From an uncultured Alphaproteobacteria bacterium (GTDB lineage: Bacteria; Pseudomonadota; Alphaproteobacteria; RF32; CAG-239), in the NCBI GenBank assembly GCA_944391725.1, contig CALXUQ010000004.1, positions 1 to 51,838 on the forward strand: a stretch of 51,838 bases of DNA, written 5' to 3'. Below are positions 761 to 30,316 of this stretch, in pieces. Position 1 is the stretch's first letter; the number at the start of each line of letters is the position of its first letter. The notes beneath the pieces were generated by a model. The model made no database searches and was not told where the DNA came from. It saw nothing but the letters and a program-made list of their open reading frames with translations. The position numbers were made by a program, and so were the translations under genes.

Positions 761-788
761 TTGCATTTTAACCAATATGAGGTAGACT
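761..788 (+). promoter_or_regulatory. Putative sigma70-type promoter of cassette copy 1
   Basis: TTGCAT-N16-TAGACT; same hexamer pattern and spacing in copy 2 although the spacer sequence differs. Confidence 0.6.
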
Positions 789-925
789 AAATTTGCACTC
801 GGGAGAGCCGAGTGCGGAGTGTCACAACTCCTTATACAGAAAGAAAGCTCCTTGAATGGGGAGCGGCCGGAATAAGTGTGCCTTGTGCATAACGAAGAAG
901 GTCGACTGTTTCTGTGTACAGTTTG

Positions 926-1194
926 GCCCCTAAATCCCCCTTAAAAATATATTTTAGTTTAGCTAGAAAAAGATAGATGCGAGCAAAATGGTGTAGCGGA
1001 TAGTTCTTCATATCTGCAAAGCATTTTACGAAGCAGATGCTTTTTATAGCTAAATCCGTAGGACAAGCCTCCAATCATCATCCTACTTGCCATTTTTCTT
1101 GGTGTTAGCAATAAGTAGCACCTGCGAAAAATGCCTGCGTATTATAATGATTGGGCGGCTTGCTAAAATATGTCTTTAAGGGAGATTTAGGGGC
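926..1194. mobile_element. 269-nt MITE-like or invertible segment with 32-nt terminal inverted repeats
   Basis: 926-957 versus the reverse complement of 1163-1194 match at 29/32; segment absent from the paralogous leader at ~29870; no convincing ORF. Confidence 0.6.
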
Positions 1195-1201
1195 ATCCTC
1201 C

Positions 1202-1233
1202 CCGCCTTAGGAAAGCTAGGGCGGTTTCTTTTT
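1202..1233 (+). terminator. Leader terminator upstream of the HTH gene (copy 1)
   Basis: CCGCCTTAG-GAAAG-CTAGGGCGG followed by TTTCTTTTT. Confidence 0.7.
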
Positions 1234-1263
1234 GAAGTAGAAACCTAAAGGGAGTTTAGAGCT

Positions 1264-1545
1264 ATGGGACGTTATAGTAAACGAATTAAATCTTGGCAGG
1301 AATGCCGCAAAGAAATTGGCGAAAAAATTAAGGAAATGCGCTTAGAGTTGGATTTATCGCCCGAAACCGCCGCCGAAATACTGCATACCGGCACCAATCA
1401 CTTGCTTTACTTGGAAGATGGATATCTAAAAAATATGCAAATCTCCACCCTCCACGCACTAGCTTATAAATATAATTATAAGTTAAAGATAAGCTTTGAG
1501 AAAAAGAATGAGAAAAAAATAGTCATCCCTCGACTACGAAAGTAG
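1264..1545 (+). CDS. XRE/Cro-C1 family helix-turn-helix protein (copy 1)
   Basis: IGEKIKEMRLELDLSPETAAEIL...LLYLEDG...ISTLHALA pattern; GGGAG RBS; near-identical paralogue at 29939. Confidence 0.8.
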   Translation: MGRYSKRIKSWQECRKEIGEKIKEMRLELDLSPETAAEILHTGTNHLLYLEDGYLKNMQISTLHALAYKYNYKLKISFEKKNEKKIVIPRLRK

Positions 1546-29617: not shown

Positions 29618-29706
29618 TCCCAAAGATTAATCATAGTGTTAGAAATATCATATTTTTATTTATGATTAGTTAATGCGGAAGAGAGGCAAGGGGTAATAAA
29701 ATCCGC

Positions 29707-29734
29707 TTGCAAATTCTGCGAGATTAGATAGACT
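29707..29734 (+). promoter_or_regulatory. Putative sigma70-type promoter of cassette copy 2
   Basis: TTGCAA-N16-TAGACT, same arrangement as 761-788. Confidence 0.6.
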
Positions 29735-29740
29735 AGACTT

Positions 29741-29909
29741 GCACTCGGGTGAGCCGGGTGCGGAGTGTCACAACTCCTTAACTAGAAAAGAACAACTCCT
29801 TGAATGGGGAGCGATCGGAATAAGTGTGCCTTGCGCATAACGAAGAAGGTCGACTGACATATGCAGTTGCTAACTCCCCGCCTTAGGAATGCTAGGGCGG
29901 TTTCTTTTT
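29741..29909 (+). ncRNA. Structured leader RNA, C4/CI-antisense-like, copy 2 (uninterrupted)
   Basis: Hairpins 29741-29761 and 29762-29777; cloverleaf GGGGAG(29806-11)/CTCCCC(29874-79) with two arms; terminator 29878-29909. Confidence 0.62.
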
Positions 29910-29938
29910 AACTAGAAACCTAAAGGGAGTTTAGAGCT

Positions 29939-30205
29939 ATGGGACATCATCGTAACCGTATTAAATCTTGGCAGGAATGCCGCAAAGAAATTGGCGAAAA
30001 AATTAAGGAAATGCGCTTAGAGTTGGCTTTATCGCCCGAAAATGCCGCCGAAATACTGCATACCGGCACCAATCACTTGCTTTACTTAGAAGATGGATAT
30101 CTAAAAAATATGCAAATCTCCACCCTCCACGCACTAGCTTATAAATATAATTATAAGTTACAGATAAGCTTTGAGAAAAAAATAGTTCAGCCAGCACATA
30201 GATAG
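29939..30205 (+). CDS. XRE/Cro-C1 family helix-turn-helix protein (copy 2)
   Basis: Only three amino-acid differences from 1264-1545 across the core (D/A, T/N, K/Q); termini differ. Confidence 0.8.
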   Translation: MGHHRNRIKSWQECRKEIGEKIKEMRLELALSPENAAEILHTGTNHLLYLEDGYLKNMQISTLHALAYKYNYKLQISFEKKIVQPAHR

Positions 30206-30316
30206 CATCGCGGATATAGGGCACATACGTCAAGCAACTAACCTGCCGCGCCCAGCCGTGCTGGCCTCAGGCGCTGCTTGCGCGCACCCGTCGCACGGGC
30301 GCACCAGCCGTGCTGG
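30203..30316. repeat. 3' structured repeat shared with 1664-1725 and 1928-1990, plus two CCAGCCGTGCTGG palindromes
   Basis: TAGCATCGCGG...GGCACATACG...CTAACCTGCCGCG...CCCGTCGCACGGG; CCAGCCGTGCTGG at 30252 and 30304. Confidence 0.8.

Follow-up and report, generated by a model that had tools for sequence, protein, structure and literature searches.

The interrupted leader at 926-1194

The window analysed here is a stretch of 51,838 nucleotides from an uncultured alphaproteobacterium (contig CALXUQ010000004.1 of assembly GCA_944391725.1, forward strand). It carries two paralogous copies of a leader RNA, each lying upstream of a small open reading frame (ORF). Copy 1, together with its ORF, spans 761-1545, and is interrupted at 926-1194 by a 269-nt insert with inverted-repeat ends. 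This insert is the subject of the present analysis. The element is real and non-random, a target-restricted variant of the bacterial foldback or MITE (miniature inverted-repeat transposable element) kind. In what follows, labels beginning with C, G and L are the contigs, genomes and loci of this analysis (G245 is a genome, for example, and L077 a locus). G000 is the genome that holds the window (1.57 Mb in 78 contigs), C4 is the window contig, and G006 is a congener.

A sequence-only reading of this DNA had described an insert of 269 nt whose 32-nt ends match at 29 of 32 positions, and we confirmed both the coordinates and the repeat (926-957 and 1163-1194; 91% complementary). The insert was absent from leader copy 2, as that reading had also said, and both flanks could be aligned around the gap (at 29723-29975). 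Only short, unconserved ORFs overlap 926-1194, and the insert is non-coding. Its parts are as follows.

926..957: terminal inverted repeat on the left side (32 nt), with 91% complementarity to 1163-1194; its outer ~20 nt keep their sequence across subfamilies
958..1054: inner hairpin A (~97 nt), a predicted fold; helices 2-6 of the family alignment, with compensatory changes
1055..1063: mini-hairpin of the three-way junction, within the invariant AAATCC-nnn-GGACA (invariant alignment columns); helix 7
1064..1162: inner hairpin B (~99 nt); helices 8-10, with the unpaired conserved motifs CATYCTRCTTG and GCGYATTATRA
1163..1194: right terminal inverted repeat, 32 nt; forward and reversed copies of the genome differ by one base

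The insert is predicted to fold into a Y, in which the terminal stem closes two hairpins of ~97 nt at 958-1054 and 1064-1162, so the two inner hairpins of about 100 nt proposed earlier were borne out. The RNA fold reached -110 kcal/mol (with z at -9.4 for the + strand and at -10.9 for the - strand), while the DNA fold reached -57.6 kcal/mol (z -8.5), and none of 200 shuffles folded as well as the insert (0/200). The fold is thus far beyond chance, and it is conserved in relatives. A permissive Rfam scan over 650-2050 gave, within 926-1194, only a chance-level match to a small nucleolar RNA (E 1.2).

Other copies and the conservation of the element

The sequence-only reading had named a lack of other copies as part of what would refute it, and this condition did not hold, as other copies exist. 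Three copies were found in G000: the one in the window (C4:926-1194), a second at C26:3732-4000 with one difference, and a third whose two parts lie at the end of C26 and at the start of C68. Two more were present in G006, each with two differences over the 269 nt and with flanks 91.6-95.9% identical to those in G000. Copies within one genome were nearly identical, yet the host leaders surrounding them were only 76-92% alike.

Within the bacterial family, we observed diverged relatives of 265-270 nt in 12 of 282 genomes, which belong to 4 of its 23 genera. A relative in another genus, in G021, is 270 nt long, has 33-nt repeats and shows about 70% identity. Two subfamilies that are only ~70% alike coexist within one genus. 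A signature made from the invariant motifs (AAATCC-nnn-GGACA) retrieved seven metagenome contigs, one of them in a record titled human gut metagenome; a terminal-repeat scan of metagenome contigs returned nothing. The element was not found in viral contigs by terminal-repeat scans, nor in plasmids or phages by BLAST, and a narrow literature search gave no published description of it.

For the analysis of structure, ten full-length copies were aligned end to end. The consensus structure contained 98 pairs, of which 48 showed compensatory changes, and 95.5% of the cells at paired positions were paired, as against 40-48% after the partners had been slid by one to three columns. None of 500 shuffles reached the observed covariation score (0/500). 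What is conserved in sequence are the terminal repeats and three unpaired motifs, namely AAATCC-nnn-GGACA at the junction, CATYCTRCTTG and GCGYATTATRA, while the arms are conserved mainly in their pairing. G-U and A-C counts were about equal on both strands, and they are too few to point out a functional strand.

A scan of genome contigs with the 20-nt terminal repeat also returned 11 cyanobacterial loci (L026-L037). These are palindromes of ~70-80 nt that share exactly the first ~22 nt, usually after GAT, and have no common interior. As only those ~22 nt are shared, we treated these palindromes as probably a coincidence or an unrelated repeat, and not as relatives.

The leader RNAs that carry the element

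The host leaders have a common layout, in which a conserved, promoter-like hexamer pair is followed by five hairpins and an intrinsic terminator, and then by a ribosome-binding site with a small ORF. The superfamily is unannotated. An Rfam scan of the whole window at the gathering score gave five tRNAs only, and a permissive scan over copy 2 (29650-30000) gave nothing credible, with no match at E up to 10. The features of the two copies in the window, other than the insert, are listed below.

761..788, + strand: putative promoter of copy 1 (TTGCAT, spacer, TAGACT), found at the same place in 9/9 type-I leaders and not called by the consensus scan
795..831, + strand: hairpins 1 (795-815) and 2 (816-831), predicted folds; the loop of hairpin 2 provides the predicted pseudoknot with its 5' strand
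847..922, + strand: hairpins 3, 4 and 5 (hairpin 5 at 905-922), from the alignment of nine paralogues and predicted folds
921..925, + strand: GTTTG, the left remnant of the pseudoknot 3' strand, identical in 5/5 copies of the subfamily despite differing hairpin-2 loops
1195..1234, + strand: right linker remnant ATC, 3' strand of the P stem (CTCCCC) and intrinsic terminator (stem 1202-1224 and T run); a terminator-like site was called here by the scan
1264..1545, + strand: small ORF of 93 aa behind the copy-1 leader
29723..30185, + strand: leader copy 2 with its ORF, an empty paralogue with the linker GTTGCTAA

The P stem may be formed in copy 1 by GGGGAG at 858-863, which can pair with CTCCCC at 1198-1203, a reading made by eye that also draws on the analogous stem of the type-III leaders described below. 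The paralogous ORF behind copy 2 (29939-30181) showed a weak helix-turn-helix similarity (HTH_19 at E 0.034, below the cut-off).

The leaders occur in many copies. G000 has nine of type I and at least seven of type II (at least 16 copies in all), and the congeners G001 and G008 gave 31 and 33 BLAST matches, respectively, to a type-II leader. Variants of hairpin 4, of the terminator and of the ORF are interchangeable among paralogous leaders, which are thus mosaics. Leader copies in G000 include C1:65457-65912, C1:79823-80261, C8:30491-30929, C40:11092-11530, C5:33796-34243 and C26:3422-4122, and further ones lie on C34, C36, C30, C15, C18, C12 and C42. Two other short repeats were seen behind the small ORFs, a hairpin unit of ~108 nt starting GTCATCCCTCG and a unit of ~54 nt (in the window at 1516-1623, 1792-1899, 1658-1711, 1922-1975 and 30189-30253), with many copies on other contigs.

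A third type of leader (type III) was found in G245, G258 and G259 (loci L114-L118) and in five metagenome contigs. It precedes genes for lipoproteins or cysteine-rich secreted proteins, sometimes as tandem units (L079:330-850 and L079:870-1140; also L077, L080 and L081). The domain of type III made up of P, hairpin 4 and hairpin 5 matched the Rfam family sRNA-Xcc1 (RF02221) at 37.1 bits (E 0.0023), short of the gathering score of 53, and this likeness was seen for type III only. One report places sRNA-Xcc1 upstream of the small gene symE in integron cassettes (10.1101/2025.06.18.660453); the host leader is likewise an RNA upstream of a small gene, and this sub-threshold likeness is a lead on the host leader and not on the insert. 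Transfer-messenger RNA (tmRNA) was considered as a context for type III and set aside, with no ARAGORN call in eight loci and no Rfam tmRNA match.

Insertion sites, junctions and orientation

Every full or contig-end copy whose flanks were read lay within the leader superfamily, at one of two sites. In types I and II, each copy with readable flanks sat downstream of the CAGTT that stands at the foot of hairpin 5 and upstream of the CTCC just before the terminator. In type III, the element sat in the apical loop of hairpin 5. The only copy found outside these leader sites was a remnant of 92 nt on C25 of G021. Copies of the same subfamily, 97-98% identical, occupied two non-homologous sites in G021 and G245. 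Since one subfamily can sit in two unrelated flanking sequences, a target guide encoded by the element itself was rejected as unlikely.

It had been proposed that the insertion came with a 2-nt GC duplication, and this did not hold. The spacing between CAGTT and CTCCCC in type-I leaders was 5 nt in empty leaders, the same as in occupied leaders minus the element, and no direct repeat was found at the junctions read. The ends of the sister subfamilies are non-palindromic (GGCAT..ATGCC or AGACC..GGTCT) and have no flanking repeat, which excludes a palindromic duplicated dinucleotide. Moreover, G017 has two natural empty leaders (CAGTTTGTTGCTCC) that correspond to the junction of the GGCAT subfamily without duplication, CAGTTTG^TTGCTCC. 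These leaders have a matching hairpin-2 loop (scored in the one on C5, and by eye in the one on C18). The pattern CAGTTTG^TTGCTCC was overall no commoner than its control (9 against 8 matches), and the two in G017 are the only matches that are leaders. The element enters without target duplication.

The remnants at the junctions were constant within each subfamily: GTTTG|E|ATC in 5/5 copies and GTTTG|E|TTG in 4/4 full copies (E being the element), with GTTTG| in 2/2 left ends. They mismatch the hairpin-2 loop of their own host leader.

The element lay in the forward orientation in G006, G001, G008, G009, G021 and G145, and in the reversed orientation in G096, G147, G245, G258 and G259. G000 was mixed, with one forward copy and two reversed. 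Both orientations with identical junctions were seen in G000 (C4a as against C26a and C26e), and again between L077 and G245 on the one side and L080 on the other. The sharing of junction remnants by the two orientations indicates that inversion across the terminal repeats has happened. A group I or group II intron, or another insertion at the level of RNA, was rejected on the occurrence of both orientations and the lack of an Rfam match.

Occupancy differed between orthologous leaders. The G006 counterparts of C4b and C1b of G000 were occupied, and the counterpart of copy 1 of the window was empty. At the ends of the element, identity between copies fell sharply, and the flanks common to them ended within 7-16 nt.

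The insert interrupts a predicted pseudoknot

The hairpin-2 loop of these leaders is complementary to the GTT plus linker that follows hairpin 5. We scored this pairing in 48 leaders (39 empty and 9 occupied; two more could not be parsed). At least seven contiguous pairs between loop and linker were found in 37 of the 39 empty leaders, with a median of nine. More than ten different co-varying loop/linker pairs were seen, for example CTGAAAAAC/GTTTTTCAG, CTAGAAAAC/GTTTTCTAG, TAGTAAC/GTTACTA and TCACAAC/GTTGTGA. None of the nine occupied leaders reached seven pairs; they had three to six, counted as though the element were absent. In types I and II, the element replaces most of the 3' strand of the pseudoknot, and in copy 1 of the window four contiguous pairs are left. 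The pairing between bulge and hairpin 2 that had been predicted is therefore present across the family; the particular pair TGGCAT/GTGTCA rests on the unsupported GC.

The two exceptions among the empty leaders were copy 2 of the window (four pairs) and G001:C33 (six pairs). The linker of copy 2 (29856-29880) forms only a weak pseudoknot though it is free of the insert; the leader on C40 shares its hairpin-2 loop and has a matching linker, with seven pairs.

When the whole copy-1 RNA was folded, the insert closed on itself, and hairpins 1-3 and the terminator were predicted as in copy 2. The rest of the RNA can still fold because the insert is self-closing. The second option of the sequence-only reading, a self-closing domain that folds out, is therefore a correct description of the predicted RNA, but it leaves unexplained the conserved motifs, which occur on either strand with respect to the host RNA. 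The insert most likely disables the pseudoknot of the copy-1 leader, which, with its pseudoknot lost, is probably fixed in one regulatory state.

Search for a mobilizing enzyme or a parent element

The assemblies are fragmented, which limits every statement below on the absence of an enzyme or a parent element. A transposase with matching terminal repeats, which the sequence-only reading had suggested looking for, was not found in 151 genomes or in the contig, viral, plasmid and phage collections. No IS110-type DEDD transposase (PF01548) was detected in G000 (0 matches), and the controls were positive in 7 of 14 genomes. G000 has two tyrosine recombinases (PF00589), both Xer-like, and one serine recombinase (PF00239), which is large and cut by a contig end. 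There was no small invertase in G000 and no resolvase-domain gene in G006; small serine recombinases of 190-210 aa occur in several genomes of the bacterial family. The large serine recombinase gene of G000 lies at C31:18777-19733 (L074) and is preceded by a 145-aa ORF of the kind that accompanies large serine recombinases in prophages; a mobile element that was not assembled may have its edge at this locus.

A gene for an IS200-type Y1 transposase (PF01797; IS, insertion sequence) was present in two of the five carrier genomes tested and showed no link to carriage. It was found in G000, where it was the only transposase-like gene, and was lacking in G006, G001 and G021. In G000 this gene (C3:102-467, L082) stands at the start of a contig and is flanked by CCCCC..GGGGG hairpins unlike the ends of the element. 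Comparison of G000 with itself gave no IS-like repeat, and the longest repeats encode surface or flagellin-like proteins (translations judged by eye). A link to dif and Xer was also considered and rejected: the one candidate in G000, on C2, has four mismatches to the dif consensus, and no likeness to the terminal repeats by eye.

How the element may spread

With moderate confidence, we favour the reading of the insert as a non-autonomous, target-restricted foldback element (similar to MITEs or to REPINs, the hairpin-forming doublets of repetitive extragenic palindromic (REP) sequences), found only inside one leader superfamily of gut alphaproteobacteria. A few founding insertions would have been made through a trans-acting protein that binds the terminal repeats, or through a process guided by the structure of single-stranded DNA. 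Most later spread within a genome would have carried 2-3 nt of flank along on each side and would have gone from one paralogous leader to another, through copy choice or a homing-like gene conversion, and occasional inversion would take place across the terminal repeats. The patchy distribution (12/282 genomes, 4/23 genera) speaks for an element that moves by itself. Among the three options of the sequence-only reading, a MITE that knocked out the bulge comes closest. The element is multi-copy, non-coding and bounded by terminal repeats, its occupancy varies, and it interrupts the pairing strand; it differs from a standard MITE in that it leaves no target duplication, that no cognate transposase was found and that it is confined to one RNA-gene family.

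Several observations weigh against this preference. Where orthologues of G000 and G006 differ in occupancy, the entire 3' half of their leaders is different too, and presence or absence alone is therefore no proof of transposition. The constant junction remnants and the mostly uniform orientation fit a spread by recombination only equally well, and gene conversion between old copies could also give the near-identity within genomes. Serine recombinases do not track the element, as the carrier G006 has none and four of five non-carriers have some. No longer element with these terminal repeats was found in the 151 genomes, where the repeats were always ~245 nt apart, or in genome, metagenome or viral contigs, plasmids or phages. 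Finally, neither the searches of G000 nor the comparisons among carriers gave an enzyme, an absence that is not proven given the fragmented assemblies.

These points bring in the foremost alternative, which we consider possible but on the whole doubtful. In it, the insert is an old optional module of the leader, which goes back to one or two ancient insertions and has since been shuffled by ordinary recombination among the 16-33 paralogous leaders of each genome (including gene conversion and template switching at hairpins). It draws on the mosaic nature of the leaders in hairpin 4, terminator and ORF, on the swapped 3' halves of the G000 and G006 orthologues, and on junction remnants that are constant per subfamily and unmatched to the hairpin-2 loop of the host. 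Orientation is uniform in most genomes, element subfamilies go together with leader types, and no transposase was found in the searches, all of which speaks for such a module. The metagenome contig L076 fits as well, for in it a single element copy has the left flank of a type-II site on one side and the right flank of a type-III site on the other (as compared with L075 and L077), from which it follows that element copies do recombine with each other; judged from its sequence, L076 is a likely chromosomal rearrangement from recombination between two of them. However, the common flanks end within 7-16 nt on both sides in all copies compared, which is too short for exchange of the RecA type. An optional module also fits poorly with a 97-98% identical subfamily at two non-homologous sites, with the patchy occurrence, and with subfamilies only ~70% alike within one genus. 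The terminal repeats and motifs are conserved whatever their orientation in the host RNA, which points to selection on the element itself.

Within the reading as a mobile foldback element, a more specific form can be put forward, though we regard it as unlikely. In that form, the insert would be a structure-guided DNA parasite of the riboregulator family that has no transposase, enters the loop or linker DNA of the leaders where this is single-stranded, is copied to paralogous leaders by a homing-like repair and flips in place across its terminal repeats.

Slightly less likely still is an inverton, in which the 205-nt core enclosed by the 32-nt repeats would be turned over by a recombinase, with the result of phase-variable control of the downstream small gene, as the sequence-only reading had also suggested. 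The size and repeat length lie within the range of invertons, and both orientations with identical junctions and interior were found between paralogous sites in one genome, and both also at homologous type-III sites, which gives the suggestion some support. Small serine recombinases occur in several family genomes. In addition, the motif GCGYATTATRA of hairpin B reads as TATAAT or CATAAT on the - strand, and, from the alignment, this box is conserved in all subfamilies. But a consensus scan called no promoter inside the element, and the box has no -35 partner. A small invertase is lacking in G000, and serine recombinases of any size are lacking in G006; orientation is mostly uniform within genomes, and most leaders work without the segment. 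Loss of the pseudoknot strand in occupied leaders reads as damage and not as design. In the contigs of four gut runs from birds or chickens, neither a joint that changes strand nor a clean empty allele of this locus was seen, but these contigs break at the repeats and are uninformative; the skip joints in them stem from paralogues. No RNA run was listed among the sequencing runs that contain this DNA. As the searches gave neither a transposase nor an invertase as a partner, a programmed switch is here no more than a hypothesis.

The remaining rival, a functional expansion domain (such as a platform for binding) under selection as RNA, is very improbable: the insert does close on itself with the neighbouring helices and the terminator as in copy 2, and its fold is conserved with covariation, but the conserved unpaired motifs, which are sense in some lineages and antisense in others, are left unexplained, the G-U and A-C counts are balanced between the strands, and the element destroys a pairing kept by 37 of 39 empty leaders.

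Comparison with known systems

The Correia or NEMIS elements of Neisseria are bacterial MITEs, and Correia duplicates TA on insertion. The element resembles them in being short and non-coding, with terminal inverted repeats and several near-identical copies per genome in either orientation. It also lies within transcribed leaders, where its repeats fold the RNA back on itself. Small size, terminal repeats, lack of coding and multiple copies, which are marks of a MITE as a non-autonomous derivative of a DDE-type transposon, were thus all found. A duplicated target was not, and neither was a full-length IS or a transposase that matches the element. The element further differs in having one to three assembled copies per genome, in one RNA-gene family and at two exact positions, and in its interior, which beyond the terminal repeats is a conserved three-way junction with compensatory changes.

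REPINs and REP elements are mobilized by the REP-associated tyrosine transposases (RAYTs) of the Y1/HUH type. Like them, the element is palindromic, has a hairpin that compensatory changes on both strands maintain, and does not duplicate its target; its entry into the loops and linkers of hairpin-rich DNA would be explained if it took a route through single-stranded DNA. Unlike them, it is much larger, branched into a Y and present in few copies, and a RAYT flanked by the repeat, expected in all carriers, was not found.

Some insertion sequences also choose hairpins. IS1397 and ISKpn1 insert in the loops of palindromic units, and members of IS110/IS1111 insert in REP or attC sites without duplication. 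The likeness lies in the restriction of insertion to one particular point within a repeat that forms hairpins and, for IS110/IS1111, in the lack of a duplication. These IS elements are, however, autonomous and orientation-specific, and G000 has no DEDD transposase.

Invertons are invertible promoters between inverted repeats. The element is like them in having ~200-300 bp between inverted repeats of ~30 nt, upstream of a gene, and in occurring in both orientations with the same junctions. It is unlike them in being optional and mobile between leaders, with no invertase in G000 or G006 and no detectable promoter.

The antisense C4 RNA of phage P1 was the model behind the bulge pairing predicted in the sequence-only reading. 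The likeness concerns the host leader and not the insert, and consists in the pairing of a loop with a linker within one transcript. Rfam gave no C4 match in the leader regions (650-2050 and 29650-30000) at E up to 10.

What the element may mean for its hosts

Small foldback repeats are mostly dismissed as junk that lands anywhere; this element, in contrast, lies at two exact single-stranded spots of one leader RNA. With no visible enzyme in genomes of 1.5-1.9 Mb, it offers a tractable case for movement driven by structure or by the repair system of the host. The strand of the leader that matters is marked by the insert, and the empty and occupied paralogues within one cell are ready-made mutants for tests of sensing. 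If the reading as a structure-guided parasite, which we regard as unlikely, is true, the element would bring about a heritable and reversible uncoupling of single leaders, within a regulon of 16-33 copies, from control that depends on the pseudoknot.

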